From Leucoraja ocellata (taxonomy: Eukaryota): a DNA stretch of 64,000 nucleotides. This document shows positions 1 through 63,245 of the stretch, piece by piece. The stretch is taken from positions 806,001 to 870,000 of the forward strand of contig JAWMAR010000567.1 of NCBI GenBank assembly GCA_036785375.1, in the 5' to 3' direction. Positions within the stretch are counted from its first letter, which is position 1. The number at the start of each line of letters is the position of its first letter. The notes under the pieces were generated by a model that saw nothing but the letters and a program-made list of their open reading frames with translations, did no database searches and had not been told where the DNA came from. The position numbers and the translations under genes are program-made.

Positions 1-959
1 TATGGAAGACTCCAGGAAAAAATCAAGGGAGCAGTGAGATGGGTGGAGAAATGACAGAAGCAATTCAAACCGACAAAGTTAAAGGTAAGGTGTTGTGGGA
101 GAGGAAACAAGACAATGGATCCTAAAACATGTGGAACAGGGTAGAAATCTTGGTGTGCACATCCATGAATGACTGGTGGTAGCAGGACAAGCACACGTCA
201 TGTTTTCCTGTATTGTGCGAGGTGGTTGTGGGGGAAAGGTGATAAGAGGAGCAACAGGGTTGGGACAGGTAGGAACAATGAAAAACATGTTCATTTATAG
301 CTGGAACATTGTAATGGTATTTCAGAGGATGTAGAGGAAATTTGCAAGGATTACACGATTGAAAAAAGTTAATTATGGATAAAATATGGTTAGGTTTAGA
401 TTCAACAGTTTTTTTTCAGTTGGCCTGAACATGAGGGGAAAAATAGATTGGAACAGCTAACAATGGCCTGTTTCCTTTATCACCGTTGCTTCTTTTGCAT
501 ATCTTTCATTCATTTGTTCTGTATCTCTCTACATCACCGTCTATGTCTCTTGTTTTCCTTTCCCCTGACTCTAGTCTGAAGAGGGTCTTGATACAAAATG
601 TTACCCATTCCATCTCTCCATAGATGCTGTCTGTCCTGTTGAGTTACTCCAGCATTGTGTGTCTATCCGGTTTAAACCAGCATCTTCAGTTCCTTCCTAC
701 ACATTCCTCCGTTGGAAATTTGTTTTTTTCAATTCCGTTATTTGTTTTGAAAGATGATAATGGTGGGGGTGGGTTGGGGAGGGGAGGAGGTAAAATTACA
801 AGATTGAACTTGGTCAGTAAATGGTATTGTGCAAAAAAATGTAAATCAAAAATAGTTCTTAAAGGGAAAATAACTTAGTGGCATCAAACAAGTAATGAAT
901 TCAACTTAATGTATTAATCTTATTCGTATTTTGTAAAATTTTGTCTTTCTCTCCAACAG

Positions 960-12930: not shown

Positions 12931-14334
12931 GTAGGAGTATCCATCGTAGAAAAATAGAAACAGGCTTTCCATTTCTAAATTAGATATTCCAATTCATGCA
13001 ACCCTTTTCTTTCAAATAAATATACAGGTACTTAAATGCAGAAAAAGATTAAAATCAAAAAAATATTTTGTAAGGCTTCTTGTTGTGCTGCTTAAAAGGC
13101 ATATCAATTGTGCTTTCTTAAATATAAGAAATTAATACCAAGTCCTATTGTGGAATAGAAAATGAATAGAAGCAATGAAATGAAGCAAACTTAAAGGATA
13201 GTCTTACAACCACCATTCTTTATTGTATCCAATAAGCTAAACCATTGCAATTGTGGAAAATTCTATACAATTAACACTTTTTTAATTGCAATTATGTGCA
13301 CTCCATATTCATTTGAAGCTATTACTAGAATTAATTTGCTATCTTTCAAGTATTCATACGTCAACAGTGGGAATGATAAAGACGCTGCACTTTATCCAGC
13401 CCCTGCTAAATATTTGAATGTCACATGATTTTAGCATCAAATCATATTCATCATCATAGCATCATACTTAAGCCTGTAGCCTGCAGGTTTTTTTAAAATA
13501 AAGTAAGTCCTGCTTCAAAATCTCTGCCGTTTGCTGATTCCATAACCATACAATCACAGTGCTTTTCCGTTTATTCAGAAATTGGGTATCTGTGAGATTT
13601 TATCAAGTTTTTAAGAGTTTGGAGTATCTGTTCCTTAATCAGTTTTTCACCTATTTAGGTCCAAAATGTTGAAGTAAATCTTGTAAGATGAATAAAGTAG
13701 AAATATGGGAAAAAATCTCAAGGCTTTTTTTTACATGAAACAAAATAATGTGGTTTTGCTGTGATACCAAACTTCAAACTCTGAAGAAGGGTCTCGACCC
13801 AAAACGTCACATATTCCTTTTCTCCAGAGATGCTGCCTAACCCGCTGTGTTACTCCAGCCTTTGTGTCTATCTTTGGTTTAAACCAACATCTGCAGTTCC
13901 TCCCTACATATTCAGACCCAGTTAGTTCATCTCAGATGGGAACTTCAGCAAGATACCGAAGAGACTTTGTAGATGAAGTTGGTTCATTACCATTCCACAA
14001 GCAAAGACTTGGAGAGAAGTTTATTAAGTTCATCACTACCTTGACGGCAAATTGAAGGAGTCATTATAATACAGCCAGCCTGCTTTCTTTTGATACTTTG
14101 AGGAATTTTAACCTCCAAGGCCAGAAAAAAAATGCAGCATTATCTATCCATTTCAGTAAAGGTAAGATTCAATGATTATAATACAGTCATTTAATATATT
14201 TATGGTGGCAGTCTTTCAGTACAACTCTGAAGGTATTACAACAAATTCTCCAAGACAATGGATGGCTAGATCAATTATGCTTTTTTTGGAGGAATATAGA
14301 ATGTTTTGCAAAGTATTATAAATGAAACAAAAGT

Positions 14335-14538: not shown

Positions 14539-14539
14539 T

Positions 14540-22887: not shown

Positions 22888-23062
22888 CCATCTTTACTGA
22901 GCGCTTCATAATATCCAAGAACTTTACCTCTTCACGGGACATTTCTTCTGATTCCTTGCTGGATCCTTCATTGAAGTCGTGATTGTAATGCTTGATCAAC
23001 AGCTCCTCTATGCTTGCAGTAAATATTCGATTAACAACTGCAGTAGGGTAGTTATTCTTATT

Positions 23063-23785
23063 GTTCAAGAAGGAACAGCAGATGCTGGAAAATCGAAGGT
23101 ACACAAAAATGCTGGAGAAACTCAGCGGGTGCAGCAGCATCTATGGAGCGAAGGAAATAGGCAACGTTTCGGGCCAAAATCCTTCTTCAGGCTGATAGGG
23201 GGTGGCGTGGAGAAGGAAGGGAAAAAGGAGGAGGAGGAGGAGCCCGAGGGCTGAGGGATGGGAGGAGACAGCAAGGGCTAACAAAATTGGGAGAATTCAA
23301 TGTTCATGCCCGCAGGATGCATACTCCCCAAGCGGAGTATGAGGTGCTGTTCCTCCAATTTCCGGTGTTGCTCACTCTGGCCATGGAGGAGACCCATGAC
23401 AGAGAGGTCGGACGGGGAATGGGAGGGGGAGTTGAAGTGCTGAGCCACCGGGAGGTCAGGTTACTTCTTGTGGACCGAGCAGAGGTGTCCGGCGAAACGA
23501 TCGGCCAAGTAATCCTCCGTCAGTTTCGCCACGTCCAACGTGACCCCACCACTCGCCACATCTTCCCATCTCCCACCATGTCTGCCTTCCGCAAAGACCG
23601 CTCCCTCCGCAACTCTCTTGTCAATTCTTCCCTTCTCTCTCGTACCACCCCCTCCCCAGGCACCTTCCGTTGCAACCGCAAGAAATGCAACCTCTGTCCC
23701 TTTACCTCCCCCCTCGACTCCATTCAAGGACCCAAGCAGTCGTTCCAGGTGCGACAGAGGTTCACCTGTATCTCCAACCTCATCT
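23063..23785. mobile_element. Penelope-like fragment with internal inversion, nested in BEL
   Basis: The minus part carries the endonuclease C-terminus and a hammerhead repeat. The plus part encodes AFRKDRSLRNSLV...CNRKKCNLC...FQVRQRFTC (Penelope linker/GIY-YIG). Confidence 0.8.
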
Positions 23786-25100
23786 GGGCTTCCGCAACGG
23801 CGACTTCTCCCGCCCGAATTGCGGGGTTGAAAAGTACCTGGAGCAGGGCCTTACATCACCCAGCGCGGCTTTAAATGGCTGCGGGACTTGCTAGCGCCCG
23901 CCGGGGGGGCTCCAACACCAAGACCCGGAGCACGGCCTTGCATCGCCCGGCGCGGCTTTAATGGCCGCGGGACAATTACTATCGCCCACCGGGGGCTTTG
24001 ACTCTGACATCGGGAGGAGAATGAGGAGTGCAGGGGAGAGATAAGACTTTGCCTTCCATCACAGTGAGGAAGAGATTCACTGTGATGGATGTTTGTGTAA
24101 ATTGTGTTGTGTCTTGGTTCTTTTTCTTGTGTGTATGACTGCAGAAACCAATTTTTTGTTTGAGCCTCAATGAGGTTCAAATGAAAACAAATAAATTATA
24201 TCATTGTATCAGTAGCTCTTCCCACTGTAGCTGTTTGTGCTACGATTCCAGATAACCGCTTCTCCTGTTCTTCTGCAAAACCGCCAAAAATTTCCATTTC
24301 GTCTTGAAAACCACTGATTTTGCCTATCACGTTCCTCCTCAGGCCCTGTTGTAAACCCTGTATTAAGACGTGGTTTTGTCCAATCTCGAGGCGGAGGTTG
24401 TTTAATTGAACCAGATTAGATTTTACTTCCTTTACATTCTCATCTGAATTCACGAGTACGTTCTGGTTTACGGTCAACTTGTTAACCTGCTTCCATGTTT
24501 CTTTCCTTCTGGCATTTTTCCAGGAACGCCGCTGGTCCTTTCTCACGGAGCTTGACGATTCTCTTTCTTATCTTCTCGACTCCTGCTGGTCATCGCCCCC
24601 CTGTGGCATTTCTTCATACTTACCTGCTTGAAGGTCCATAATAAATGTATCTTTTATCGGAGTGTTCTTTAAACATCAGCAGGAATCCAAAACAAACTGT
24701 TGGTTTTGTTTTTAAAACATCATTGTATTCGAGCTCCTGGAATTCCTCTCCCAGTATCTGTTGTAAACAATCGTCGGCTTCAACACACCGTATCTTCTAG
24801 GAATCCATAACATCATTATTTTCAAGGTCATGGCTTCAGCACCAGCAGTTTATCTTTGCTACTGTAAACAAGATTCCTCAGCTGTTTTCAATACTGTCCT
24901 TGGTACTATTTCTGCAAACTTTCTTTAACTTCTGGCTTTGAAGTCTTCAATCTTTGTTCTTCTGATAACCCAGGTGTTGACCGTGTTGATTAGCCTGTGA
25001 CTGGCAGATTCTTTGTTCGAGGGTTTCAAGCTCTTATCTCACTCGCAGAGATTCAGCTTTCTCCTTCAGTTACACTCGTAGAACCAGTTTTTTACTCTAA

Positions 25101-28173: not shown

Positions 28174-29869
28174 TAAGTTTAGTAATCTTAATTTATTCCA
28201 ATGAATGTCTGCTGTCTATGAGTAATAAATAAGGGTACTAAACTAAAACATGTATTACACTGGAGTCTTGTAGAAGTAGATTGAAGAAAAATCATGGGAT
28301 GCTCTGCCTGCATTTCCTGTACAACCATATAACAATTACAGCATGGAAACAGGCCATCTCGGCCCTACAAGTCCGTGCCGAACAACTTTTTTCCCTTAGT
28401 CCCACCTGCTTGCACTCATGCCATAACCCTCCATTCCCTTCTCATCCATATGCCTATCCAATTTATCATATTGAATCAAGGACATTTTGCATCTGGGCAA
28501 GTTCTGGGTGCCTAAACTTCAAAAGCGCTGAAGTTGCTGCAGGAAGGAATTGTAGATGTTGGTTTACACTGAAGGATAGACACAAAATACTTGACAGGCA
28601 GCATCTCAAGATAGAAGGAATGGGTGACATTTCGAGTCCAGACCCTTCTTCAGATAGGAGAAGGGTCTCAATCCAAATTGTTACCCATTCCCTTTATCCA
28701 GTGATGCTGCCTGTCCTGCTGAGTTACTCCAGCATTTTGTGTTTATCTGAAGTTGCTGCAGGACAAGCAGGAGGCTGGGAATTCCCAGCAACTGGCTGTC
28801 CCTCTGCGACGGAGAGTTCAAGGGACCATCTGGCATAATTATATTCATAAGGTCATAAGGAATAGGATAGAATTAGGCAATTTGGCCCATCAAGTCTACT
28901 CCGCCATTCAATCATGGCTGATCTGTCTCTCCCTCCTAACCTCATTCACCTGCATTCTCCCCTCTGACATGTGTGCTGATATTGTGGTAATAATTGGAGA
29001 CATATTTCATAGGAAGAATTCAAGTTTTAATGGTGGAGCATATGAGGAATTACAGACCACAAAATTAGTGGTTTATATTACTTATTGGAAATCTTCGGGA
29101 AAAACCAAACGTTTTAAACCATAGGTTATACTCAAATAAATGAATGGATAATTTCAGGTGGCTTTTCTGTATATTTGATATATTGATTATGTTAAATGTT
29201 GCTTTCATTAATTATTTCACCTTGTTGAAAAGAAAGGATGTCTATATCCTATACTTGGTACCCAGAGACAATTTGTATCTGAATCATTTTAAACTTAATG
29301 GATCTAATTTCAATGTATTTTTAATACTATCTAAAAGATTTACTTTAATACTATCTAAAAGACAAGTAGCCCCTATGAAAGGGGTAGGAGGGGGTGGGAA
29401 TTGTCGATGATTCAGGTTGGGAATGAGTGGGGAGATGGCCAGAATAACGAGGAGAGGGGAAGTAGTGACGTAGGAGCGAGAGGTGAGTGATGGACTAAAA
29501 AAGGGATAGGATGATATGCAAGTGGAGGTAGGGGAGGAGGATGGGTCCATTTCGAAGAGAAAGGTTGGTATTTATATTGGGTTTTTATTATTGACCGTGC
29601 CTACAGTGAAACACTTAGTTTTGTGTGCAGGCAAAGCATACCATATAAGAATACAACAGTTAGTGTAAAAAGAGAAAGAAAGCAGAGTGCAGAATATTGT
29701 GTTGCAGCTGGAGAGAAAGAGCAGGTTTTTAAATTGTGCAAGTGCTGCAACGAGATGAATTGGGAATATATCCTAAACTTATATGAGGCTGATAACAGTG
29801 GGATGCAGCTTTTTTTGAATCTGGTGCTAGGTTCTTTCAAGCTGTATCTTCTATTGAGATGACAGATGA

Positions 29870-33125: not shown

Positions 33126-33614
33126 CATAATAAGAAAGTATCAAAGTTTCATGTAAGTTTATAATGTTGACTATTGAAACCAGGTACAGAGGAAAAGCCC
33201 TATATTATTCTTCAACAGGATAGACAAATGACTGACATTTCATTAAGCTCTTTAGCACTCCAACTCACTCAACATAATATGCAAGTGGATTTTGGTTAGT
33301 CCTAATTCCTTTACAAATATTACCTACCCTTATTCCAAAACAGTTTTAAAGGGGTCACATGAAACTTCAAATGCTTTAATCTTGTGCAGAAATCAAACCG
33401 TTGGACGAACTCAGCAGGTCAGGTAGCATCAGCAGAGTGAAATGGACAAAGTTTGAAGTCTGAAGAAGGGTCCCGACCTGAAATGCTATATGTTCAATTC
33501 CCTCCACAGATGCAGTCTGACCCCCTAAGTTCATTTTAAATGTATGGGGTACACTAGAAATAATTATGCCATGTAAAATCTTTAAAAAGTGCGATATTTT
33601 CTCCATTGTCAGAG

Positions 33615-33990
33615 AGAGGGTCAAACGCAATTTGGACGAACAGCATCACATATTTTGCTTGGGCAGCTTACAACCCAGTGGTATGAATTGTGATTTCTCT
33701 AACTTCAAGTAATCCCTGCACTCCATCTCTCTCCATTCCTCCCCCACCCAAGTTGCTCCAAGTTCCCGTTCTCACCTGGCGAACATCTAACAATGGCCTG
33801 TTTCCTTTACCATTGTTACTTTTTTGCATATCTTTCATTCATTTATTTTATATCTCTCTACATCACTGTCTATATCTCTCGATTCCCTTTCCCCAGACAA
33901 GTCAGAAGAAGGGTCTTGACCCGAAACGTCACCCATTTCTCTCCAGAGATGCTGCCTAGCCCGCTGAGTTACTCCAGCATTTGGTATCTC
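33615..33990 (+). mobile_element. Penelope-like 3' end followed by the hammerhead-bearing repeat
   Basis: KRNLDEQHHIFCLGSLQPSGMN-like C terminus, then CAGAAGAAGGGTCTTGACCCGAAACGTCACC at about 33903. Confidence 0.75.
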
Positions 33991-34770
33991 TGCTCAGATG
34001 TACCTGTAATACATTAGGAAAACTCATCGAAATACAAGTTGGAGAATAAAGTGGTGCATCCAAATCTTTCACCATGCCTAAAAATCTCATTATGTAGCAG
34101 AATGTTTAAGAAAGAACTGCTGTTCCTTAAAAAATCGGTAGACAAAAATGCTGGAGAAATTCACCGGGTGAGGCTGCATCTATGGAGTGAAGGAATAAAT
34201 TCAATTGCTGGCTGTAGGCCATTAACAAATATCAGGATCTATCAGATCCATTTGAAAATGGATCATCTTGCGAAGTATATCATCTTTCAGAATCTCAAGT
34301 ATTTTCTCACGAACAGATATGAATAACAATGATCCTGAGGTAAAAGCGCAGCACAGTAAGCCTCATTTTGATGGACCTTTACACTGTATAACAGATTTCG
34401 GTAATAGCGGACTGACCTACCGATGGATGCTCGCGCTGCCTCCCTGTTCCCTTGTACCCCCGGCAACACCCACTACACGCTCGGCTCATGCTGCTTCAGG
34501 GTCAGACCTTCCGCCACAACCCGTGGCCTACACAACTTCCTCGGACGCTTCCTGGCCACACCTGCCATTGCCGACCGTTACCTGCACTCTGGTGGTCAGA
34601 GTAATTGGTGGCCCAATTCAATCCTCACCTATCTCTTCCCCCCCCCCCCCCCCAGCCACTAGCAGGCAGGGCCGACAACTCACCTGTTCCAAACCGAGAG
34701 TCTGATGAAGCGTCTCGACAAAATATCATCTATCCACGTTCTCCAGAGATGCTGCCTGACCTGATGCACG

Positions 34771-39090: not shown

Positions 39091-40545
39091 TGAGTTACTC
39101 CAGCACTTTGTTCCCTTTTGTGTATTAACCAGCAACTGCAGTTGTTTATTTTTATTACTTATATATTGCTAATCCCGTTCTTATTTATAGTGAACAATCA
39201 GTAATAATAGATAGCATTCCATTCCCCCCCCCCCCAACGGTCTGTTATAATGAGGATGTACTGTAATAGCAACACTGATTACTCCAACTAGTTATTGTAA
39301 ATTTAATTTTACAATGTTAAATGCGAATAGTTTATTCAACATTATTATTTAGTAGTTTAGTTTAGAACATAATTACTTTTCTTGGACCTGCATCAATTCC
39401 CCATCCATCTATTTCCCCATGTTTACCAATGTAACCAGAATCTTAGCACAAAGCTCCAGAAATAGGGTTTTTTTTCTTCATTGTTGAGATTGGTAATTAA
39501 TTTATTTTTGAACTTAAGCAAAATATTATGCATTTTGAATATGTCAAGGAAAAGCAGATTGTGCGAAAAATTATTCAACATCTGTCGATGGAGAAAGTAA
39601 AGCTAATTGCAGTTCAATGGTCTTTCATCAGAACTGAGAAGAAAGTGATAAACAAGTTTAAGATGCAGAAAAAGAGGAGAGTGAAAGGAATAGATCTGTG
39701 ATAAGATAGAAGTGGAATGGTGATGGTGTGATGGATTGAAATCCCAGAGGAGGTGAAATTCGGAGGTATTGAACAGACATTATAAAAGCAAAAGATTCAA
39801 CATATCTAGCCACGATAAATAAATATTTTCAAAGAAAAATATTAAAACAATAAATAAATAAAGTTCCAGGCGAGTGCTCGACTTTGGCTTCTCCAGGGAA
39901 AATGTTTCCTGGGATGGTTTTCAAAAAAGCAGCATGGTAATTTCTTTCTTAAGTACCCTGTAACAAATATCACAAAGATTTGGAAGAGCAATTTATTAGT
40001 TTGATATTTATAATTCTGCAAAGATTGAGTAACATCATTGTAATATTAATATTTTATCATTAGTGGTTGAATTGAACTTTTGAGCAATTATTGTTTAGAT
40101 TGTTCGACACGATCAGTTCTTGGTTGGTTCTTGGTCCTCCAGAATATTCCAATTGAATTTAAACTGTAGGTAATTGTTCTAAAATATTCTAAGTTGAAAT
40201 TAGAATATTTCTTGAACCATCTATAACTTTAATAATGTTTTTAAAATACCTATAACTGTGGATGTTCAAGAAGGAACTGCAGATGCTGGAAAATCGAAGG
40301 TAGACAAAAGTGCTGAAGAAACTCAGCGGGTGCGGCAGCATCTATGGAGCGAATGAAATAGGCAACGTTTCGGGCCGAAACGTTGCCTATTTCCTTTGCT
40401 CCATAGATGCTGCCACACCCGCTGAGTTTCTCCCGCACTTTGGTATAACTTTGGATGTTTAATTGCCTGAATGTTGCAACTATCGTGACACCATGGACCA
40501 GCCATGCATTAACATTAAAGTTTTTATTGTATATTGAATTGGTAT

Positions 40546-41048: not shown

Positions 41049-41554
41049 ATTGATTTTAACCAATACTTTCTTCCCATTTTCTATCCAGGAGTAAACATTA
41101 AGATTCAGGAATCATAACCAATTAAAATGTTTTACTCTCCATCGTCCCTACACTTTCTGAAGATTTGTCAAACTTAGGCTGTAAATGTCAACTAAAAAAT
41201 AAAGAATTTGAGAAGCAGATTAATATACCGTGCTATTGTTGAAATGTGTAACGTATGAAGTTGGTTTAAATCAGGTGCCAACATATATATTTTATAATAA
41301 GCATAGGGAGTAGACCCTTGTCCGGATTTTAAGGGATATTACTAGTTAAAATGTTACAAAGATGATTGAGCAGAAGAAAGCAGAAGAGCAGCAGTTACTA
41401 ATATCTTTCATTCATTTGTTCATACATCTCTCTACATTATCGTCTATATCTCTTGTTTCCCTTTCCCCTGACTCTCAGTATGAAGAAGGTTCTCGACCCG
41501 AAATGTCACCCTTCCCTTCTCTCCAGAGATGCTGCCCGTCCCACTGAGTAATTC

Positions 41555-42030
41555 AAGCTGTTGTTCATTGACTACAGCTCAGTGTGCAACACCAGCATTC
41601 CCTCTACACTGACCATCAAACGCAGAGATGGCTCAGCAACTGCCATCCTCATTAGCAGACCGCAATCAGTACAAATTGGCAACAACACTTCCTCCTGGAT
41701 AACCATCAGCTAGGAGTATCTCAAGGCTCTACTCTCTACACCTATGAACGTCTGGCCAGATACCGTTCCACGCCGCATTCAAATCCCACCGTTGTTGGAC
41801 GAGTAATGGGTAACGACGAGACAGAGTATCGGATGGAGAATGAAAACATGATTGAATGGTGTCAGAATAGCAATCTTACTCTCAACATCAACAAGACCAA
41901 GAAGCGGATTGTTGACCAGAACAGGAAACCTGAGAATCCACAAATCAATCTGCATCGATCGGGCAGGATGGAGAGAGTCAATGGGCCTGCTCATCTCTGA
42001 AGGTCTGACCTAAGCCCAGCACATTGATGC
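41555..42030 (+). mobile_element. Degenerate Rex1/Babar-like LINE RT fragment
   Basis: LFIDYSS.. remnant and NDETEYR...WCQNSNLTLNINKTK. Similar minus-strand remnants at about 45050-45640 and 62200-62390. Confidence 0.6.
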
Positions 42031-42382: not shown

Positions 42383-42484
42383 GTAGGCGACCCCGTCCCT
42401 CAATCTCCCCCCGTCTCCCTCCTCCCCGGCAACTCTCCCCATCCCCTCCCTGGGACCCCGGCGCCGGCACGGGGCAGGTAACCG

Positions 42485-43252: not shown

Positions 43253-45829
43253 AATGAGCAAGTGTACTTGAGTACATATAAAAGCTGTATATTGATGAAG
43301 TGTACAGTGAAGAAAGACAACTGCGATGAATTGAATGATACAGTTCTTTACCTTCGCTTCAGTTAGGATGATGCCAATGAATGATCTTGAAAGTAACAGA
43401 GGGTGTCTCTGGGAGTGTATTCCAGAAGTAACAAAAATAGGGATAAGAGATGAACTCGTATTGTTTTGAAGATTGATCTCAGTTTTGGTAGTCAGTTTGG
43501 TCAAGATGACAACATTGTAAATTGTTGTGGTTCAGCCAGTGGTGGTGAATTAGTCCATGCAAATAATTGCTGTAAGGCACCCAGCGTCTGTTCAGTTCAA
43601 TTTATCTTGGCCTGATTTTGTAGTCATATTTATGTGGCCAACTTCAAATGAGTGTCGGATTAATGGTGACCCAAATCCCCACCCCCAGACACCCTCCCTC
43701 CCGTCTGGCCCAGGGTATTGATATGGGGGGCTCATTGTGGTTAGATTCTTTCTAGTTGGAAATTGTTGTCAGTTGTCCTTCACAACTTGTCCATCCATGC
43801 GTGAATGTTATCTAGGTCTTGGGTATATAAGTATGCTGAGCAGTTGTGAATGGAATTGAACAGTGCACAGTCTGTGACAAACAACCCCACCTCTCATCTT
43901 ATAATGGAAGGAAGAGTGTTGATGAAATAGCTGGTGATGGTTGAGCAAGGGGCACTGCACTGAAGGAATCCTGTCCTCTGGTGGAATGGTTGACATTTTT
44001 CCAACTGCAGCCATTACCCTTTGTTCACTGTATGACCCCAAACATTGAATGATGATCATTAATGTCAGTTTCACCAGCGCTACTTGAAGCTGCACTCAGT
44101 CAAAATTTACCTTAATGATGAGAGTCTCTCTCGTTTTGCTTCTGGAATTCACTTCTTTGATCCAGACATGAACTAAAGGATGTAATAAGTTCTGGAGCCA
44201 CGTAGTCCTACAAAAGCAAGTACAAGGAACTGCAAATGCTTGTTTACAAAAAAAGACCCACAGTGCTAGAGTAACTCAGCAGGTCTGAAGAAGTGTCCTG
44301 ACCCAAACCATCACCTATTTAGAAAGGCAGTGTCCAGATCTGCTGCCTGATCAGCTGAGTTACTCCTGCACTTTGTCTTTTTTTACCTGTGAAATGAAGA
44401 CTGGGTAATGGTGAGCAGGAAATCCTGCTTGGACCCTGTCAATCGCACCATCTATCACATTGCTGGGTAGACTGAGCAGACAATAAATAGATTTGGATTT
44501 GTCCTGTGTTTTATTCATAGAATATCTCTGGGTAGTTTTCCACATGGTCAGGTACATGTTGTAATTGTAGTGGAGCAGCTTGGCTAGAATTGCAGCTAAT
44601 TTGGAGCACAGATTGTCAATGTTAACAGTGGGAATCTCATCTGATTTCATAGCACAGGATACACCAAAGAGCTTGTCTCTAGTACTCTGACTGTGCCCTA
44701 CCGTCATGGAGGATACAAGGTGTCTTAGAATGATGGAATCGTAAAGCTATACGACATCAAAGTGGACCTTTCAGGTCAACTCATCCATGCCGACCAAGCA
44801 GCCCAACTGAACGAATTCCACTTGCCCATATCACTACAAATCATTTATATCTATGTACCTGTCCAAGTGTCTATTAAATGTCATAATTAAACCACTGCTA
44901 TCTCTTCCTATGGTAGCTCGTTCTATGTATGCGCCGCCCTCTGTGTGAAAATGTTGCCCCTGAGGTCCTTTATAGATATTTTTCCTCTCATTGTTAAAAC
45001 TATGCCGTCATGGACCCACCATCTCCCATTAGCTGTTTAATTCTCCACCATCATTGATGATCAGATGTGGTATGATAGTGGAGCTTTGGCCTGATCTGTT
45101 GGTTGTAAGATTTGAATTGCCAAAGCAGGTCATAATGCAGCCAGTCTGCCTGCTCTCTACTGTGCACCTGCATGAGTTTGATGGAGTGTCGCCAGCATAC
45201 TATCGGTAATCTTCAATCTTCTAAGGAAGTAGGGGCATTGATGAGGTTACTCAGGTGCCGAAGGTCCATTTCATCCTCCAATTTAGACCTAAAATGTCTC
45301 CTCTTTTTTCTAATGGCCTTATCCAGGTCGTACCTGGACTTCCTATGTGATACTGTATCACCAGGTTTCAATGCCCGACGCATGGGCCACAGCAGACATC
45401 CTGGTTCATCTGCTTCTGGTTAGGGGACACACAGATGGTCTTGGTGGGAACACTCTCCACCACACATTCAACCATGACGTATTCGTTCAGCTCTGTTGCT
45501 GAATCCTGGATAATTGCCCAGTTTACTGACACAAAACAGTCGATGAGTTGTTCCTCTGCTTTCCCTGATATGCTCTGTGCAATCCTCACCACTGGAGCTG
45601 CGTTCTGAAGCCGCTGCCTATACGCAGTAAGGAACGGCGCCTGTATTTGCAACGCAACCTGCTGTTTACTTTCCCCATCCAGTTTCATTTGCCCTCGATT
45701 CCCCCATGTAATGTATGCAGCAAGCATGTTTACTTGGATCAACACAGTCTCAATCGCTACGTGGCACAATCTCAACTACTTCAGTGTAAATAATTTTTTT
45801 CCAAATGTATTTTCTGCTGGTGGTAACAT

Positions 45830-46546
45830 TGTGACGTTTTGGGGCGAGACCCTTCTTCAGACTGAGAGTCAGGGGAAAGGGCAACGAGAGATATAGATGG
45901 TACTTCAAACATATTAATGGAAAATATGCTGAAAGCAACGGTGATCAAAAAAACATCGAACTCACGACGGTCAATTGTTTTACTGTCATCCTGTTGAGCT
46001 CCACTGTCTATATAACGGTGTAACTCGGCAGGAGACAGTAAAACTAGGGTGGGGGAGGGATGGAGAGAGAGGGAATGCAAGTGTTATAGTTGGTTAGAGA
46101 AATCAACCGCTGGGTTGTAAGCTGCCCAAGCAAAATATGAGGTGCTGTTCCTCCAATTTGTGTTTGGCCTCACACTGACAATGGAGGAGGCCCAGGACGA
46201 AGAGGTCAGTGTGATAATGGGGAGGGGAGTTAAAGTGTTTGGCAACCAGGAGATCACATACGCCGAGGCAGACCCCGTTCCTCCCCTCCCCTAGTCGTCA
46301 AACCAGTTTTACTGCCCTCCTAGGTACACAAAATTGCTGGAGAAACTCAGCGGGTGCAGCAGCATCTATGGAGCGGAGGAAATAGGCGACGTTTCGAGCC
46401 GAAACCCTTCTTCAGACTGATGGGGAGTGGGGGGAGAAGGGGGGAAAAGTGGAGGAGGAGGAGGAGCCCGAGGGCGGGCGGGTAGGAGGGTGGGAGGAGA
46501 CAGCTAGAGGGTTAAGGAAGGGGAGGAGACAGCAAGGGCTAGCAAA
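45830..46546 (-). mobile_element. Two adjacent Penelope-derived 3' fragments with hammerhead repeats
   Basis: Endonuclease C-terminal remnant at 46100-46260; hammerhead-like cores at about 45833-45860 and 46388-46415. Confidence 0.72.
46388..46415 (-). ncRNA. Minimal type I hammerhead ribozyme motif (intact core)
   Basis: Minus strand reads gt-CTGAAGA-A-GGGT TTCG GCTC-GAAAC-GTC-gcc. Confidence 0.62.
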
Positions 46547-46715
46547 ATACCTCCTCGTAAAGTCCCGGCTCTGGAACTCTTTATCCAGAACTGCCGCCGC
46601 GACGGTAACCGCCTCAACTTCTCCACTCCCTTGTCTCACTCTAATCTTTCCCCCTCTGCAGCCACATTTAATGTCCTCCTGTTGAGTTCCACTGTCTGTA
46701 AAACTTGTTATCACT

Positions 46716-47197: not shown

Positions 47198-48163
47198 CAG
47201 GTGCACAACCTTTTATCCGGTGTTCCGGAAACCGAAAAACTCCGAAAACCAGCCATTTTTTCCAGATGTCGTCTGCGCACCAAAGCTCGCGTTTGGCGCC
47301 AAACTTGACCCGAAACGACCCACGGTCAACCCAGGTCTGTACTACTGTAGCGGCTGCCTCCTCCCCGGAGACCGGGAGACGCTTAAACATCTGTAAATCA
47401 TTGCTTAAATGTTAGTCAGTTAGTTTGGAGGGCTTTTATGTGAAGGGGGGGTGAAGGGGTAAACTTTAATTCTTAGTCCCCTACCTGGTCGGAGAGGCGG
47501 GGAGCGGTCAATGCCTTACCGGGTCGCCGTGCAGTAAGCTCCGCAGCGCTGTGGCCGGTGGGGCAGCGGGCGGCGCCGGTTATAGCTCCGACCCCGGCAA
47601 CTCTACCCCTGGCTGCGAGGCGCTCCAAATCCAGCGCGGCCCGCGGCCTGATGCCCCAGCTCCGTGAATGTCGGGAGTCAGCGGCGTCGCAGCGCTGGGA
47701 TACCAGCTGGGAGCGGGCAATGCCTTACCGGGTTGCCGTGCGCTAAGCTCCGGAGCGCTGTGGCCGCCGACCCAACGTTCGCGGAGCGGCGCTGGATTTG
47801 GAGCCGCGCAGCCAGGGGTAGAGTTGCCGGGGTCGGAGCTCCAACCGGCGCCGCCCGCGGCCGGACGAAGCCCCCAGCTCCGCGAGGTTGGGAGTCGCCG
47901 ACCAGGTAGGGGATTAAGAATTAAAGTTTCCTCCTTCACCCCTACTCCACCACCACCACATAAAATCTCTCCAAACTAACTGACTAACATTTATGCAATG
48001 ATTGTCCCGGTCTCCGGGGAGGAGGCAGCTGCTCCAGACTTTTCAAGCCGCCCGCTCTACCTACCTAATCTACGCTAAAAATCTTCCATTCGGAAATCCG
48101 AAAATGTCCGAAATCCGACAAGTGTCTGGTCCCAAGGCTTTCGGATAAAAGGTTGTGCACCTG
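47198..48163. mobile_element. Tc1/mariner (pogo/Tigger-like) non-autonomous element, CpG-rich and fold-back
   Basis: Perfect 22-bp TIRs CAGGTGCACAACCTTTTATCCG, TA TSD, nested internal inverted repeats; it splits an older Penelope-derived repeat. Confidence 0.9.
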
Positions 48164-48379
48164 TACCATCTATATCTCTCGTTTCACTTTCACTTTCGGC
48201 TCAGTTTCAAGAAGGGTCTCGACCCAAAACATTACCTATTTTCTCCGGAGATTCTGCATGACCCGCTGTTACTCCTGCTTTTTGTATCTATCTTCGGCTT
48301 AAACCAGCATCTGCAGTTCCTTCCTTTGTCTTCATGAGAAACCTAGTTTTAATATAAAAATGCAAATGGAAATGTTTAA

Positions 48380-48688
<309 letters not shown>

Positions 48689-48874
48689 TAGGATATCTAC
48701 ATTTCATTGTATCCTAAAGACGAAATGTCCAGCTGTAATATGAAACCATTCTAACTTCTTCTCTGGAATTTTAGAAACTAAAAGATTACATTTAAAGTAC
48801 ATTCAGTTCTATGCACCAGGTACTGCTGGTAAAGTAATGGCAATAGTTTGAATTGGTAATGTTTCATTGTAAAG

Positions 48875-50765
48875 AACACAAAAAGCTGGAGTAACTCAGC
48901 GGGTCAGGCAGCATCTCTGGAGAGAAGGAATGGGTGACGTTTCGGGTCAAGACCCTTCTTCAGACAAGGTGGAAAGGGATGGCAGGGGGGAGGAGAAGAG
49001 TGGGATAGTGGGAGAATGGGTGCACACTGGGGTTGGGAAAGGGAAAGGAAAGAAGGCAAAGGGTGGGGTGTTACCTAAACTTGGGGAATTCAATGTTCAT
49101 ACTGTTGGGTTGTGAGCTACCCGAGCGGAATATGCGGTTGCAGGGAGAAGTACTTGTGGAGGGGGCAGTTTGTGTAGAAAGGGATGAGTGAACCAAGGAG
49201 TTGCAGAGGGAGTGGTCTCCACTGGGTGCGGATGGGAAGATGTGGCTAGTGATGGGATTAAGTTGAAGGTGGCAGAAATGTCTGAGAATGATGTGTTGGA
49301 TGCGGAGGGCCGTGGGGTGAATGGTATGGACTAGGGGAACTTTATCCTTGTTCCGTCTGGGTGGAGGGGGAGCAACCAGGAGATCCACCAGGCCTAGGAG
49401 GACCGTTTCAGTAAAACGGTCACCCAGTCTACGCTTGCTGTTGCCCAGGGAGCCCATCATCGGGAGCACTGCCTTCAGTAGATGATATTAGAGGAGGTTT
49501 ATGTGAATTTCTGTCTCACTTGGAAGAGCTGCTGGGGTCTCTGGTTACAGGTGAGGAAGGAGGTGTAGATCTGCAGTTGCAGGGGAAAGTACCTCGGGAG
49601 GGGCAGTTTGAGGGGGAAAAGATGTGCGGACCATTAGTTTGCAGGAGGAGTGGTTTCTACGGAAAGCAGAAAGAGTCGTGGGTGGGAAGATGTGACTAAG
49701 TGGGACCCTTCTTGAAACTGTGAGTCAAGGGAAAGTCTAGGTGGTGGTAATGTAGGAGATTGATGTCATGGATGCAGAACCTGGTGCAGTGATATGTAAA
49801 GACCAGGGGACTTGTTCAATCTAGGGGGAGGAGCTGCAGGACAGAGGTGACAGGGATGGAGGATTCATTCACAACAGTAGCGTGTAAACTACATTTACTA
49901 AAAGCAGACATCTTGGATGCCCTCGAGTGGAAAACCGCATCTTGGATGCAAATGTGACAGAGAGAGTGAGAGTGGTCGATGGTGTCCATGCATGAGGCAG
50001 GGTGGGAAGAGGTGTTGTCAAGATAGCTGGGATTCAGTGGGGTTTTAGTCGATGTCAGTTGAAAGTCTGTCCTCTCTGATGGAGAAGGAGAGATTGAGAA
50101 AGGGAAAAGATAGTTCCGTGCATTTGAGGACAAGGTGCAAGTTAGTGGGAAAGTTGTTGAAATCAGCAAGTTTTGTGCAGGAGACAGCCCCGATGCAGTC
50201 GTTGATGTCGTGGAGAAGGGGTTGTGGGGTGGTGCCAGTGCATGTTTGAAACAAGCACTGTTTGACATAACCAACAAAAAGGCAAGCATAGCTGGGGCCC
50301 ATGCGACTGCCTGCCCATGGGTACACCTTTGATTTGTAGAAAGTGAGAGGAGGAGAAGTTCTGCAAGGCAGAGGAGAGTGTTAATAGAGGGGAACAGAGC
50401 GGACTGCTGCTCAAGGAAGAACTAGAGAGTCCTGTGACCTTCCAGATAAAGATGAGAACTGTTAAAATTAAAGTTGTCAAAGTGTTGAAGATCATGTGAG
50501 GCGTGTCAGATGTAGGTCGGAAGGAAGATAGGATGGAGTCAAGGTATTTGGAGATGCGTTCGGTGGGGCAGGAGCAGGCAGAATTCAATCACTCTGCCAT
50601 TGTAGTCCTGCTTGTGGATTTATGAAAGAGACAGAAATGGGCAATATGGGGTTGGGGAACTGAGGTTTGAGGCTGTGAAGGGGAGAAAATTGCCAGAGGT
50701 GATGAGATCAGTGATGGTCTTGAAGTTGGTAGCCTGCTGCTTGTTTGTGGGTCATGGACAAGTCA
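48875..50765 (-). mobile_element. Degenerate Penelope-like retroelement (RT + GIY-YIG remnants + hammerhead-bearing terminal repeat)
   Basis: CSCPTERISKYLD, LQIKGVPMG/SRMGPSYACLFVGYV, a degenerate YIDD, and SKRRLGDRF. Hammerhead core at 48936-48963. Confidence 0.82.
48936..48963 (-). ncRNA. Minimal type I hammerhead ribozyme motif (intact core)
   Basis: Minus strand reads gt-CTGAAGA-A-GGGTC TT GACCC-GAAAC-GTC-accc: CUGANGA box, stem II, GAAA, palindromic ACGU stem III and a GUC triplet. Confidence 0.7.
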
Positions 50766-50827
50766 AGTGTTCACTATTGGACAGTATTGAAAGCAAACAG
50801 CGCTAACAGAATGAAGGCTTGCCATAA

Positions 50828-51548
50828 CGAGACCTGGGTGTCATGGTACACCAGTCATTGAAAGTAGGCATGCAGGTGCAGCAGGCAGTGAAGAAAGCGA
50901 ATGGTATGTTAGCATTCATAGCAAAAGGATTTGAGTATGAGCAGGGAGGTTCTACTGCAGTTGTACTGGGTCTTGGTGAGACCACACCTGCAGTATTGTG
51001 TACAGTTTTGGTCTCCTAATCTGAGGAAAGACATTCTTGCCATAGTAACCTGTACAGAGAAGGTTCACCAGAAATATTTCTGGGATGGCAGGACTTTCAT
51101 ATGAAGAAAGACTGGATAGACTCGGCTTGTACACGCTAGAATTTAGAAGATTGAGTGGGGATCTTATAGAATCTTACAAAATTCATAAGGGGTTGGACAG
51201 GCCAGATGCAGGAAGATTATTCCCGATGTTGGGGAAGTCCAGAACAAGGGGTCACAGTTTAAGGATAAGAGGGAAGTCTTTTAGGACCGAGATGAGAAAA
51301 TCATTGTTTACACAGATAGTGGTGAATCTGTGGAATTCTCTGCCACAGAAGGTAGTTGAGGCCAGTTAATTGGCTGGATTTAAGAGGGAGTTAGATGTGG
51401 CCCTTGTGGCTAAAGGGATCAGGGGGTATGGAGAGAAGGCAGGTACAGGATACTGAGTTGGATGATTAGCCATGACCATATTGAATGACGGTGCAGGCTC
51501 GAAGGGCCGAATGGCCTACTCCTGCACCTATTTTCTATGTTTCTATGT
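50828..51548 (+). mobile_element. CR1 3' fragment
   Basis: Same family and tail as the 27651 copy. Confidence 0.9.
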
Positions 51549-51731
51549 TACTATAAGGTCTGCTGATTCTTCAGAAGATGTACAACAGTCTGATATTTGA
51601 AGTGATTCGATTTGAGATGACAAGACTTATAAAAGAGCTTTGTTTGCAACATTTTGTTACAGACATGTGCACTCATTGGATTGAATTATTACTCTTTGCT
51701 CAGTTTATCCATTTAATCTGATCCAGTTATA

Positions 51732-53592: not shown

Positions 53593-53691
<99 letters not shown>

Positions 53692-54129: not shown

Positions 54130-55025
54130 TGTAGTGTATTCATGCTTACCCTACCGAATGTCTAGCTTTTTCTTTTATCACAATTTTCCAAACTTAAATC
54201 TGTGCCCTCTAACTCCAGATTCTGTTTATCTATCCTATTAATGACCCTTATAATGTTATAAACTTCTCTAAGGTTGCCCTTCAGCATCCTATATTCCAAT
54301 CTTTTCTTATAACTACAGCCCTCCATTCATTGCAATAATCTTGGTGAATCTCATCTGCACTCTCATGATATTGTATCTTTCCAGCAGTATGGCTAACAAG
54401 TGTGGTTGAACCAATATTTCATCCAACTGCAACATGACATAATTCATTTACTCACTGCGTCTACCTATGAAGTCAAGCCTGACAAATATATTTATCACCA
54501 CACTGTTTGGCTCTGTAACCATTTTCTTGGAGCTGTAGATTTACACTACAAGGCTTCTCTGCACATAACCACTAATTAGGTTCCCGGTCTAACAGAAATT
54601 GATTTGCCAAAGTTCATAACCTCACACTTACTGGCATTAAATTCCATCTATTACCTGTCTGCCCAGGTGATAAATGTACAGATGAATCCTTAGACAAACC
54701 TCTTTGAGTTCCATCACTACTCAAATGTTGTTTTGAAAACTTACTAATCGTACCANNNNNNNNNNNNNNNNNNNNNNNNNNNNNNNNNNNNNNNNNNNNN
54801 NNNNNNNNNNNNNNNNNNNNNNNNNNNNNNNNNNNNNNNNNNNNNNNNNNNNNNNNNNNNNNNNNNNNNNNNNNNNNNNNNNNNNNNNNNNNNNNNNNNN
54901 NAGGCAATTTGCGTACATTCCTCAGATACCTTGACATTTAACCAGCTCGCCATGCAGGACCTTGTCAGAAGCCTTGCCCTAGTCTTTGTGAACCATGTCT
55001 ACTGCCCTACCATCAATTCTCTTAG
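54130..55025 (-). mobile_element. Old degenerate CR1 fragment spanning the assembly gap
   Basis: Minus-strand similarity to the CR1 RT C-terminal region (e.g. WNLMP, corresponding to WQMEFN). Confidence 0.55.
54756..54901. other. Assembly gap (146 N)
   Basis: Run of n characters. Confidence 1.
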
Positions 55026-55279: not shown

Positions 55280-55372
<93 letters not shown>

Positions 55373-55456
55373 TGAGAAGCATGCCTATTCATTGCATTAA
55401 TATTCTGTATATTACATAATTTGGCAGAACCGGTTAATGAGAAACGGTTACATTGA

Positions 55457-55765
<309 letters not shown>

Positions 55766-56410
55766 TGAAACTAGATGTTGCTTATTATTTAAGAGAAATC
55801 ATATACTAAATCCCACAGATATTTTGGCTTTAAAACATATGGGGGGAAAAAAGGTCATGCATTGAAAACTATATTTCTTCAGCTTTAATATTTTGTAATT
55901 CTCCTTTTGTCTTTCTCTAATCAAAGTTAATGCATTTGTAATATCAGTCTATCCTGGTTTATGAAAGTGAAGATTATAAAGCATTGTTTAAATCTGACAG
56001 ATTAATTTCTTAATGGAATATTGTGACAGGAATTTGACTGAATCGTTTTGAACAGATAATGAGGACTGCTGATAAGGAAAGTGTGTTTAATGTGGTCTGT
56101 AGATTTAAACAAAATAACTGACAAAGTCCCACAGGACAGACTGCAAAAGAGGCGGTCAGATTCAAAATTAATTCTGATAGGAAGCATGTTGCTGTGGTGA
56201 CTGAAAGACATTACAATGTGATTACATCATCAGTGCAAGCTCTTTGTAGTACACATCGGCTACAAATATAAATATAGAGATTATGATTAAGGAAGATCAA
56301 GATCTTAATTCAAGCATGCCTACTTATAACCATATAACCATATAACAATTACAGCACGGAAACAGGCCATCTCGGCCCTACAAGTCCATGCCGAACAAAT
56401 TTTTTTCCCC

Positions 56411-59300: not shown

Positions 59301-59348
59301 CATTCTGTCTACTACCTTTCGCTATTTGAGTCCCTCGCCCCAACCATT

Positions 59349-60281: not shown

Positions 60282-63245
60282 TCTCCCGCCTTACCCTGGA
60301 TCTGATACCAGTGTAACACAATAGAAACTGCTGGGAGAAATCAGCAGGTATCTGACTCACAACAGCTGCTCCCTCGTGACCTTTAAACTGCACCTTTATT
60401 ATATAAACAAAAAGCACTGTACCTTTAGCCCACTGTACCCTTGGCTCACTGTACCTTTACTAAAGAACTGCACCTTTAACCCACTGTACCTTAACTAAAG
60501 CACTGCCCCTTTAACCAGAAAGCACAAATGCTAACCTGATGTTGCACCCAATCAGCTGCTTCCTCTAGTCTGCTTCCACCAATCAGCGGCTTCCACCAGA
60601 ATCCTCACTATGGAGCGTGGAACGTTACGGATTTTGGTAAAAAAGCCCTGACCCTCCTCCACTGCTCTCCAACGGTCCTGGGCCTCTGTGAAAACAAGCC
60701 CCGCGCCCGATTTATATACTCACCGCCCTGACCCTCCTCCACTGCACTACTTGGCTGCAATGATTCCTGTCACCTTGCATGCCTCACTTACATGACTACA
60801 TTCAGTAGGCACCTTAAAAGCATTGTAGAGACAGCAACACTGTCTCAGCAAAATACTCCTGATCCACAAGCAGCATGTTATGTTTTCCTGGCAACTGCTA
60901 TGTGTCTGATTACATTCAGCCAGTTTCAATGGACACACTCTATACCCAACAAGTTATGTACTCTAGTCTAAGCTTCATTACAGCAAGAGATTAACAGCTA
61001 GACAGAGGAAATGATTTACGAAGATACTGAAAAACAGCATCATCCCCTTTTTGTCGTGGGAATCCTTAGCCTGAGAACGATACAAAATGGAGCAGCAGCG
61101 TTCAGTAGGCACTAAGGACCTCAAGACCCTTTGTCAGGAATATTCAGGATCTGAGCATAATTAATGGTGGGAATACACTATCTCCTAAAGTATCCGCTCA
61201 CCCTGACAAACACTTCCAGCCGCACATGGAGAGTCTGCAGTTCCCACATTGGCCTCATCAGCTACTTCAGAATCCTGCAGAGGTGTAGTGGAAGCAAGTC
61301 GTCCTTGATCCCAAGGTACTGTTTGAGATGAGAAGAGGACTGCTTAGCCTTATTGGTAGAGTCATAGTTATAGAAACAGGATATTCTTGCTGGGACTGTG
61401 TAAAACAAACTAATTAGACCATAACTAAAGTAATGCTTACAGTTGAGGTCACCATATTATAGAAACTGTTATAGTAAGAGAGAGGTAACAGTGGTTTTAA
61501 TTGTCACGGTAAAAAGTATATTTAGAGCTTGGTCGCAAATATTTTTTGTGAGTCGAGAAGGCTGAAGGGAATGTCACTCAAAACATAGAGAGGAAGAGGT
61601 GGGATGAATACTAGAATCATTTTCCCTTGGAAAAGAAACCAATAATTCAGGAGGGATAGGGATATTTTATTTAAGTGAATCGGCAAAAGGTTTGAATGTC
61701 TTCATCCAAAGAGATGTCATGGTCTGAAGCTCATTGCCTGAAGCAGTATTGGAAGCAGAAACCAATCTGGATGAGCATTCAATGTGCTGTAATGTTCAAT
61801 GTTCCTGAGCAAAAGCTGGGGTGTGAAATTGATCTGAATAATGTGGTGTGAATATGATGAGATCATGTCCTCCTTTGGTGCTTTAAAATTCTATGATAGT
61901 TTACAGTTATTTCAGAATCAGTATGCTTTATTATCTTGATCTTTCTTGGATTTTAGCTCCATGTATTTGGCAAGACCACACCAAGTTGAGTATATGTTCA
62001 TATGCACAACTACAGTAAGATGAAAATCTTGTTTGGAGCAGCATCACAGGCACAGACTCTGACAAACACACAGAAATATAAATGATGCATGAAATTCTGC
62101 AAAACAGTAAAAAGAAAGAAGACTGTGGGGAAAAAAAAAGATATTGTTGCGAAAGGGGGAAAAAAAAACATGGTAGTGGGTCGTAGTGTTCTGTTGTCGA
62201 GGTGGGATTAGAGTTCTGCAGGTTGATTCAAGAACCTGCTGTCCTTAGGAAAGTAGTCGTTCCTGAACCTTGTGCTGTGCAACCCCCGGGCTCTGTACCT
62301 CTTGCTTGATGATAGCAGAGAGAAAAGGGCCTTGGCTGGATGGTGGGGATCCTTGATGATAGAGGTCACTTTCATGATGCAGCACCTCATTAGTTTAGTT
62401 TACTTTATTGTCACGTGTATTGAGGTACAGTGAAAAGCTTTTGTCACGTGCTAATCAGTCAGCGGAAAGACAATACATGATTACAGTGTTTAAGAAGGAA
62501 CTGCAGATGCTGGAAAATCGAAAGTACACAAAAATGCTGGAGAAACTCAACGGGTACAGCAGCATCTATGGAGCGAAGGAAATAGGCAATGTTTCGGGGC
62601 AAAAACCTTCTTCAGACGTAGTCAATACATGATTACAATTGAGCCATTCACAGTGTCATGTACAGATTCATGATAAAGGGAATAACGTGAATAACATTTA
62701 GTGCAAGATAAGGCCTGTAAAGTCTGATCAAAAATGGTCTGAGGGTCTTCAATGAGGCAGATAGTAGTTCAGGACTTAATCATATAGATGCTGTTAATGG
62801 AGGAAAGGGCTGTGCTGATGATGGACTAGTGTGTTCCATTTTAAAAATAGGTTGATAAATATAAAAAGAAGAAAATACCCTTTTTTTGTTTTAAAAGTTA
62901 CTTTTGAATTCAGTGTGCAAAAACATGAGAATTATGCGGTGAATGAATTGGAGGGTTAATTCGGTTACCTAATATTTGTTGTAAAGAAACTTGAAGCAAG
63001 ATCAACTTTTAGAATGTAATTATTCTTGCACATCAGAAGGTATAAAACTGAATTATTCAAAATCATACTTATTTCTCCTTGCTAAAGATGAATTTATTTA
63101 TTATTTGATGTCAATTTTGTTGCGAATATGAGAGCAGTGGAAGAGAAAAAAATGGCCTCTGGAGTATTATGCCACTTTTAAAGGAGCAAGGTTCATTTCA
63201 TGTATTAAAATATATGTTCATTTCTCATTTTCCCTTTTCAAACAG

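Follow-up and report, generated by a model that had tools for sequence, protein, structure and literature searches.

The 64-kb window, by which we mean the whole 64,000-nucleotide stretch of Leucoraja ocellata DNA analyzed here, contains a SEC23 gene, with its first coding exon (Table 1) and more exons at 53623, 55280-55741, and 63243. Its 96% match bears the name Sec23A, and the gene is noted here as SEC23 only; no convincing exon of the neighbor genes expected by SEC23 was found in the window with short motifs of those genes as query. The intron after the first coding exon holds, in antisense orientation, the repeat copy on which this analysis centers (the flagged copy), which, given this orientation, should be unable to cut SEC23 pre-mRNA. 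Its hammerhead motif occupies 48936-48963 of the minus strand and reads CUGAAGA-A-GGGU-CUUG-ACCC-GAAA-CG-UC. Upstream of the motif lies a decayed open reading frame (ORF) of 1.6 kb that aligns by tblastn with the reverse transcriptase (RT) and GIY-YIG regions of proteins of 609-882 amino acids. Copies of the repeat inside SEC23 comprise four in antisense, one in sense, and one fold-back, too few for an orientation test.

Table 1. Coordinates of the flagged copy, its host exon, and the other copies of the repeat in the window
Feature	Position	Strand	Remarks
First coding exon, SEC23 gene	48467..48688	+	96% identity to shark protein named Sec23A
Downstream part of flagged pLTR module	48871..48933	-	Stops at first of two 3' end sites; tail absent
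Minimal type I hammerhead, flagged copy	48934..48965	-	Position-by-position fit to the consensus as given in Fig. S3 of PMC4209133
Helix I of flagged hammerhead	5' strand 48965-48964; 3' strand 48935-48934	-	
C3 and stem II of flagged hammerhead	C3 = 48963; stem II 48955-48944	-	Then GAAA and ACGU palindrome
Predicted cut site, flagged copy	after 48936	-	
Pyrimidine-rich segment, ORF stop to hammerhead	48966..49070	-	3' UTR, possibly intron; unlike other subfamilies' segments
Decayed PLE ORF, flagged copy	49071..50582	-	tblastn with RT+GIY-YIG proteins P0036, P0052, P0057, P0090, P0016
RT remnants and endonuclease end within flagged ORF	RT 49825-50582; endonuclease 49074-49603	-	Internal duplication, many stops, frameshifts
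Subfamily A copy	451..706	+	Truncated at -125, core decayed, full tail
Short subfamily A copy	13779..13913	+	Hammerhead (G12 changed) and full tail
Subfamily B copy	23062..23820	-	Full tail, GIY-YIG C terminus, C3 = 23190, core intact, stem II 3/4 pairs
Inverted 5' piece of 23062..23820 copy	about 23500-23820	+	Has CX4CxxC linker
Fold-back, two inverted arms, one with tail	28538..28748	.	17-bp target duplication
Older fold-back	33382..33531	.	Forward arm begins about 3 nt before C3 = 33460
Subfamily A copy	33600..33989	+	191-nt segment behind GIY-YIG end; U4 of hammerhead changed; tail absent
Subfamily B tail arm without hammerhead	34100..34196	-	Faces 33903 copy
Decayed copy, further subfamily	34699..34766	+	G12 changed
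Fold-back centered on stem II loop	40262..40455	.	No first box; one arm with tail
Subfamily A copy	41401..41564	+	Truncated at -79, C3 changed
Fold-back	44200..44383	.	Forward arm begins at hammerhead (C3 = 44285), core decayed
Subfamily A copy	45831..46297	-	GIY-YIG remnant, G12 changed, end 2 nt past predicted cut site
Subfamily B copy	46322..46548	-	5'-truncated at last codons, core intact (C3 = 46415), no tail
Subfamily A copy	48163..48325	+	Truncated at -43, both boxes decayed, full tail
Short subfamily B copy	62487..62617	-	Hammerhead and full tail; 15-bp target duplication

The motif is real: allowing up to three mismatches, 10 matches were found, whereas 100 dinucleotide shuffles gave 0.00 on average. 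An earlier note on this DNA had listed 15 positions for the repeat and called it the commonest short repeat of the window. BLASTN and alignment recovered all 15, and the deepest self-BLAST cover (14-fold) falls on the module that carries the motif. At 40362 the repeat is present, but neither arm of the fold-back has a CUGANGA box. To the list can be added module arms at 28656-28748 (plus strand) and at 33382-33454, 34100-34196, about 44200-44285, and 5072-5180 (all minus strand), one recognized by eye at about 5357-5445 (plus strand), and weak fragments at 39089 and 53365 from self-BLAST. Rfam returned no hammerhead family in the window at E values up to 5; its seven weak matches are to other families, and five of them are caused by the fold-backs at 40362 and 28626. 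The hammerhead pattern had no match in viral contigs. Seven metagenome loci matching a 20-base tail pattern shared only the matched 20-26 bases and were set aside as chance.

Placed beside the published consensus (Fig. S3 of PMC4209133), the flagged copy agrees, as had been claimed, with a minimal type I hammerhead carrying an extra base after A9 and a palindromic ACGU. The CUGANGA box is followed by one unpaired base before helix II, which has 4 bp here and is closed by G10.1-C11.1 in 13 of the 14 copies in the core analysis (4 of 18 aligned arms were dropped, as they do not cover the motif). GAAAN, the palindromic 15.2-16.2 pair, and the NUH triplet are all present, as GAAA-CG-UC in the flagged copy, and the palindrome pair is retained in 11 of 14. 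Helix I forms pairs 1 and 2, within the range of 2-6 bp given in the figure; of the "2-3 bp" of proximal stem I reported earlier, two stand, and the third fails in 13 of 14 copies. The stem II loop does vary between copies, but not by design: CTCG is the main form (61-80% of mapped depth at 48949 in four runs), while CTTG, TTTG, and probably CTGG represent decay.

The linkage of the module to a Penelope-like element (PLE) is direct. GIY-YIG remnants lie upstream of 4 of the 14 copies that cover the hammerhead (flagged, 23163, 33903, and 45833), and the last codons of the ORF precede a fifth, 46388, which bears out the Penelope origin proposed earlier. Several copies do follow the GIY-YIG C terminus, but not "directly" as had been stated: in three subfamilies, 108, 88, and 191 nt separate the stop codon from C3, and from one subfamily to another these stretches show weak likeness or none. 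The RT and C-terminal GIY-YIG domains of the single ORF survive in the window only as remnants, and Pfam assigned no family to any of five window ORF fragments taken on their own. One copy retains a CX4CxxC linker before the endonuclease, at 23554-23781. As a CX2-5CxxC linker finger marks Neptune and Nematis in the accessible text of PMC8557442, the element should belong to one of these clades; Neptune and Poseidon were the only PLE clades to turn up in the 31 vertebrates surveyed in the available part of 10.64898/2026.07.22.740005. The nearest named relatives of the GIY-YIG C terminus upstream of one copy come from Leucoraja erinacea (87%) and from Rhinoraja longicauda, with 3 hits among 13 candidates, which makes a skate the most probable source of the window.

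The anatomy of the insertions carries the same signature. The 5' ends are staggered in 8 of 14 copies, at -43, -79, -125, and about -130, -300, -330, -440, and -1,600, the copy broken at about -330 then passing into an inverted piece; four sites are fold-backs of two inverted arms. Two 3' end sites, about 35-40 nt from each other, are in use; the extension between them, the tail, belongs to a single arm in each of the fold-backs at 28538, 40262, and 44200. Of the 15 insertions examined, 12 showed no target duplication; the other 3 lie between duplications that measure 17, 15, and about 16 bp (the last, at 40262..40455, read by eye with one mismatch). No intact full-length element between two pLTRs was found within the 64-kb window.

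Mapping of three DNA runs at 80% likeness placed 316,138, 292,386, and 295,843 contig records on 48720-49320, record counts that are not copy numbers, and almost all of them lie on 48867-48971. In one run the depth summed to 83 million over the module, as against 0.18 million over the ORF end and 230 over the unique flank, and in all three runs the ORF end lies two to three orders below the module. Part of this deficit arises because the mapped copy is decayed and of a minor subfamily; the 3' bias of the repeat in the DNA runs is plain despite the decayed reference ORF.

Taken together, we consider the repeat to be the pLTR, or 3' terminal module, of an endonuclease-positive PLE of the Neptune type that comprises several subfamilies and has been hugely amplified in skates, a reading to which we give a probability of about 80%. 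The module would consist of the minimal hammerhead, about 65 nt, and an optional tail of 35-40 nt. PLE reverse transcription has two internal start points, close together, and these delimit the tail in the accessible account of PMC11167929; such start sites would leave the module in each insertion and little else in most. It can further be proposed that the hammerhead is kept intact in the replicating master elements, as no core base differs between subfamilies A and B, that it could cut there only as a dimer through the ACGU palindrome and probably only with the element's protein, and that the scattered copies are dead passengers. A separate, "retrozyme-like" nonautonomous family, as the earlier note had it, is not what the copies look like: they are linked to an ORF, have staggered 5' ends and ordinary PLE signatures, and form no tandem array in the window. 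What is left of the nonautonomous idea is a subset of short copies that begin at the 5' edge of the motif.

The evidence is divided on whether the motif is still a ribozyme. An alternative holds that it derives from a hammerhead and is now conserved for promoter activity, splicing, or protein binding. We regard this as possible but not the likelier outcome. Among 14 related copies, which were first chosen by the hammerhead motif itself and whose cells are not independent, the majority base is matched in 141 of 154 core cells, 519 of 650 downstream cells, and 142 of 280 upstream cells. The expectation that the core boxes exceed their flanks thus holds for the flank averages but not for the downstream, nonhammerhead block AGATGCTG, which equals the core (100 of 104 cells), so that conservation is not unique to the ribozyme. 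The comparison of subfamilies speaks against a lost function. The A and B majorities differ at none of the 8 first-box columns, none of the 4 GAAA columns, 4 of the 12 in stem II and its loop, 11 of the 57 downstream, and 11 of the 20 upstream. The two subfamilies share every core base, the additional base behind A9, the G10.1-C11.1 pair, and the palindrome, while loop and flanks differ, and an A-to-G change in stem II and in helix I preserves pairing as U-G.

Individual copies have decayed considerably. Most have lost core bases, largely at CpG sites, and G12, retained in 8 of 14 copies, is A in the other 6, as expected from CpG decay. Both boxes survive in 5 of 14; in 3 of the 14 (48936, 46388, and 23163) the palindrome, the two helix I pairs, and three or more of the four stem II pairs are retained as well. 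Covariation, put forward in the earlier note as a check, gave no signal above shuffles: among 11 little-diverged copies, one row of which is misaligned by a base, the score of 0.261 was reached by 100 of 500 shuffles, with both-sided change in 1 of 66 cells. The lack of covariation applies equally to the rival hairpin (420 of 500 shuffles). In folding models of the flagged copy, the double hammerhead has -5.7 kcal/mol against -22.9 kcal/mol for the best dimer, a gap of about 17 kcal/mol in nearest-neighbor energies that leave out tertiary contacts and protein help, the latter needed by the Anolis ribozyme in the account available from PMC11167929. Stem II has a probability of 0.73 in a 36-mer and 0-0.16 with longer flanks, where the models favor a hairpin that buries the first box. 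With helix I at the published minimum of 2 bp and the hairpin preferred in these models, the motif may no longer be catalytic. The activity of PLE minimal hammerheads is described as low or protein-dependent in the accessible parts of PMC4209133, PMC11167929, and 10.64898/2026.07.22.740005, the last reporting no cleavage for 8 of 9 predicted Xenopus dimers.

Transcript data come from a single-cell cDNA run of a species that carries this sequence, of which run about 1% was read; 52,421 of 17,596,208 reads map to the segment used for the DNA runs. Reads on the plus strand exceed those on the motif-bearing minus strand 4.4-fold (48909-48929) to 7.8-fold (48951-48971). We take these reads to be sense by library convention; if so, most transcripts carry the antisense of the motif, which could reflect an orientation bias of intronic copies or priming at A-rich tracts. 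There is no pile-up of read starts or ends in this one run, which is a weak test and cannot show 5'-OH ends or circles.

The short copies could also have an origin of their own. It can be speculated that, besides ordinary truncated copies, a short RNA beginning at the 5' edge of helix I is copied in trans by the PLE protein, giving a hammerhead-headed mini-element of 100-135 nt, fold-backs included. This we find doubtful. A 5' boundary at about -3 to -1 is independently fixed in 4 of 14 copies, by the target duplication at 62588 (that copy begins 2 nt before C3 = 62615, behind 5 extra letters) and by the fold-back junction at 28626, 33460, and 44285, and two more copies, 13781 and 34702, look alike at this edge. 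Among the best 15 of 487 joints, 13 have 48964/48965 (-1/-2) on one side, and all 7 opposite-strand joints fall there, with no letters between, in all three DNA runs; none of these 15 uses the cut site. The copy at 45831, which ends near the cut site, is a single case that finds no support in the best 15 of 487 joints or in the loose ends listed. Insertion ends at the motif's 5' edge and not at the cut site argue against cleaved or circular templates. On the other hand, 48965 is also the point where the mapped copy ceases to resemble the main subfamilies, and joints and loose ends are biased toward it for that reason. The same automated boundary test put the start of the flagged copy at -16, although that copy runs on for 1.6 kb. 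The subfamily marks (A or B) are common to short and long copies, and the cDNA run, weak as a test, shows no pile-up of RNA starts.

This edge could come from an RNA start within the conserved TCAGT, or from the RT stopping at a splice acceptor or at the base of a long hairpin. We liken TCAGT to an initiator consensus. For Penelope of D. virilis, an internal promoter is described in the accessible text of PMC2377424 and an intron ending just before helix I in that of PMC4209133. A spliced origin of the six short copies, in which GT sites at the stop codon and the CAG ahead of C3 would serve to join the end of the ORF with the hammerhead, was not significant and was rejected, the best scores being reached by 10 of 599 and 17 of 598 null scores in 18 comparisons; the best 15 of 487 joints contain no such skip. 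In its fullest form the idea would be that a skate Neptune master RNA begins at a fixed point, the conserved TCAGT 1-3 nt ahead of the hammerhead, and yields a SINE-like, self-propagating mini-element (single, fold-back, or tandem) of about 10^5 copies per genome, which we judge unlikely. Such an RNA start would, if true, explain why helix I has 2 bp and why subfamily conservation begins exactly there. Any pLTR could then give rise to an RNA of 100-135 nt, which the PLE protein would copy from the tail to that end, and dimer cleavage aided by protein would take about 30 bases off the front of the element RNA. A true mini-element lies for us somewhere between unlikely and doubtful. Random truncation does not account for the way 5' ends gather at -3 to -1.

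The scheme that the earlier note had favored, a non-LTR retrozyme whose tandem hammerhead repeats are cut to monomers, circularized, and reinserted, appears very improbable. Retrozymes derived from pLTRs occur in the one chondrichthyan sampled in the available part of 10.64898/2026.07.22.740005, and head-to-tail neighbors do exist: same-strand joints that go back make up 8 of the best 15 of 487, the best of them with 46, 30, and 49 contigs in the three DNA runs. The motif is, however, in none of the 13 tandem-repeat rows of the window, and, lacking an array, the copies in the window do not qualify as retrozymes. The closest same-strand pairs, 443 and 555 nt apart, are separate insertions of different subfamilies, and six tandem joints at 48964/5, which give no spacing, are explained by the partial tandems normal for PLEs; genome-wide, such same-strand joints leave room for rare arrays. 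Moreover, no joint at the cut site is among the best 15 of 487, 94% of the mapped cDNA reads continue into unlike sequence, and the motif is without the 6-bp helix I and the loop contacts that canonical retrozyme hammerheads have in the accessible text of PMC7229834 and PMC4209133. A plant LTR retrozyme, with type III hammerheads in two LTRs, was rejected, the motif being type I and the copies having no direct terminal repeats around them. Domestication of the flagged copy as an intronic ribozyme that works on SEC23 RNA deserves next to no credence: the core of this copy is one of 3 intact ones among 14, and the copy lies inside a SEC23 intron, but it is antisense, terminates a decayed transposon of 1.7 kb, and comes no nearer the family majority than other young copies.

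Seen as the pLTR module of a Neptune-type PLE, the repeat looks ordinary and not like a new mobile element, since the class of PLE minimal hammerheads is already well described. Our search of mainly open-access literature found no paper on hammerheads in skate or shark PLEs, and the supplements of 10.64898/2026.07.22.740005 may list this family. With the PLE hammerheads in the accessible text of PMC4209133, the copies share the CUGANGAH box plus one extra base, G10.1-C11.1, GAAAN, the palindromic 15.2-16.2 pair, NUH, a helix III without a loop, a short helix I, the location behind the RT-EN ORF, and the prevalence of single motifs in truncated copies with some opposite-strand pairs. In Fig. 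S3 of that paper, the Acropora Neptune entry has nearly the same layout, with a 4-bp stem II and CGUC, and the rows for Culex, D. virilis, and Oikopleura also have a helix I of 2 bp.

The insertions resemble those of the Neptune clade, as far as PMC8557442 and PMC3846280 are accessible, in 5' truncation, an adjacent inverted truncated arm, target duplications, a tail of 30-40 bp on one end only, and the CX2-5CxxC linker before GIY-YIG. The inverted arms and the one-sided tail agree with Fig. 2 of PMC8557442 and with PMC3846280. They differ in that many units here are only 130-210 bp, that the duplications measure 15-17 bp as against 8-10 bp there, and that forward arms here begin preferentially at the 5' edge of the hammerhead. 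Non-LTR retrozymes, in the parts of PMC7229834 and 10.64898/2026.07.22.740005 available, share the type I hammerhead, the PLE origin, and short noncoding copies. Their definition calls for circular RNA and for hammerhead-bearing units in tandem (with canonical hammerheads in PMC7229834), whereas the copies here are dispersed, linked to an ORF, or folded back; the chondrichthyan retrozymes of the latter source have a mean consensus of 363 bp.

A parallel is offered by Poseidon of Anolis carolinensis, which belongs to another clade and has no linker finger, in the account accessible in PMC11167929. There too the pLTR hammerhead precedes a pair of 3' end sites with the tail between them, a tail that runs from one internal start of reverse transcription to the other, and there too no RNA ends were seen at the cut site. 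The Anolis ORF starts inside stem II, while no start codon can be assigned here. The Anolis ribozyme cut only with protein, and ribozyme mutants did not impair insertion. The role of PLE hammerheads is still an open question in the accessible text of PMC8557442 and PMC11167929, and a genome with so many copies is a natural experiment, in which insertion ends record the RNA that was copied. If the 5' edge proved a true RNA start, it would define the 5' end of the PLE transcript and a very short nonautonomous partner. Cartilaginous fish are absent from the rows examined of Fig. S3 in PMC4209133, and the skate, judged by density in the window (about 15 sites per 64 kb), seems to carry far more than the 4,000-9,000 motifs given there for coelacanth and Xenopus. 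Our analysis thus adds cartilaginous fishes, at very high density, to the animals with minimal hammerheads in their PLEs.

Copies of the Penelope-like element (PLE) in the window lie among those of other transposable elements and, at one point near 23050, a Penelope copy interrupts the BEL/Pao-type fragments. The long LINE on the reverse strand has an ORF1 with an esterase (GDSL), an AP endonuclease and a reverse transcriptase.

Features of the window, with strand where assigned
Feature	Position	Strand	Remarks
Older PLE endonuclease remnant	30166-30691	-	Hammerhead module downstream no longer recognisable
Two heavily decayed arms, older subfamily of hammerhead module	5072-5445		Opposite orientations; second arm by eye
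GT donor-like site at ORF stop, subfamily of copy 48936	49061-49074	-	
GT donor-like site at ORF stop, subfamily A	33708-33720	+	
GT donor-like site at ORF stop, subfamily B	23269-23282	-	
Long CR1/L2-type LINE	56322-60290	-	Few breaks
Shorter copies of CR1/L2-type LINE	14480-15478, 27650-28187, 36422-39119, 50826-51553		
BEL/Pao-type LTR retrotransposon fragments	20938-22613	-	Peptidase_A17, E 2e-42
464-codon open frame with zf-RVT	25927-27321	-	L1/Tx1-like LINE, C-terminal part
272-nt inverted repeat, 79%	37458-38061		Adjacent oppositely oriented LINE fragments
Large nested inverted repeat, MITE-like, GC- and CpG-rich	47345-48037		Arms 88-93% complementary
18-bp unit containing GTGACGTG, 8.7 copies	42132-42287		Tandem repeat
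C-rich minisatellite	42512-43194		After likely SEC23 first exon
Assembly gap	54756-54901		146 N

The large nested inverted repeat is situated upstream of the first coding exon of the host gene SEC23. Further upstream, the 18-bp repeats, whose shared motif is CRE/ATF-like, immediately precede what is likely a non-coding first exon of SEC23, with a donor-like site near 42383.

The loose ends at 48923 correspond to an additional abundant PLE subfamily, present in all four runs compared (three DNA, one single-cell cDNA), which carries the loop CCCG and differs in sequence past the predicted cut site; copy 34702 is similar to it. The endonuclease end of the window's PLE is also encountered in three predicted skate host proteins (P0001-P0003; two bear the names neuromedin-U receptor 1 and receptor-transporting protein 3-like, the other is an uncharacterised protein), all of which terminate in its GIY-YIG C terminus, reflecting either exonisation or gene-model artefacts.

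In all three window subfamilies, the ORF stop codon is overlapped by a GT donor-like site, and in subfamilies A and B a pyrimidine tract terminated by CAG ends one base before the hammerhead, just 5' of C3, the first-box cytosine. Because of these donor-like sites and the tract with its CAG, the stretch that separates the ORF from the hammerhead is a candidate intron. This candidate intron would resemble that of Drosophila virilis Penelope, which has an intron at a comparable place.
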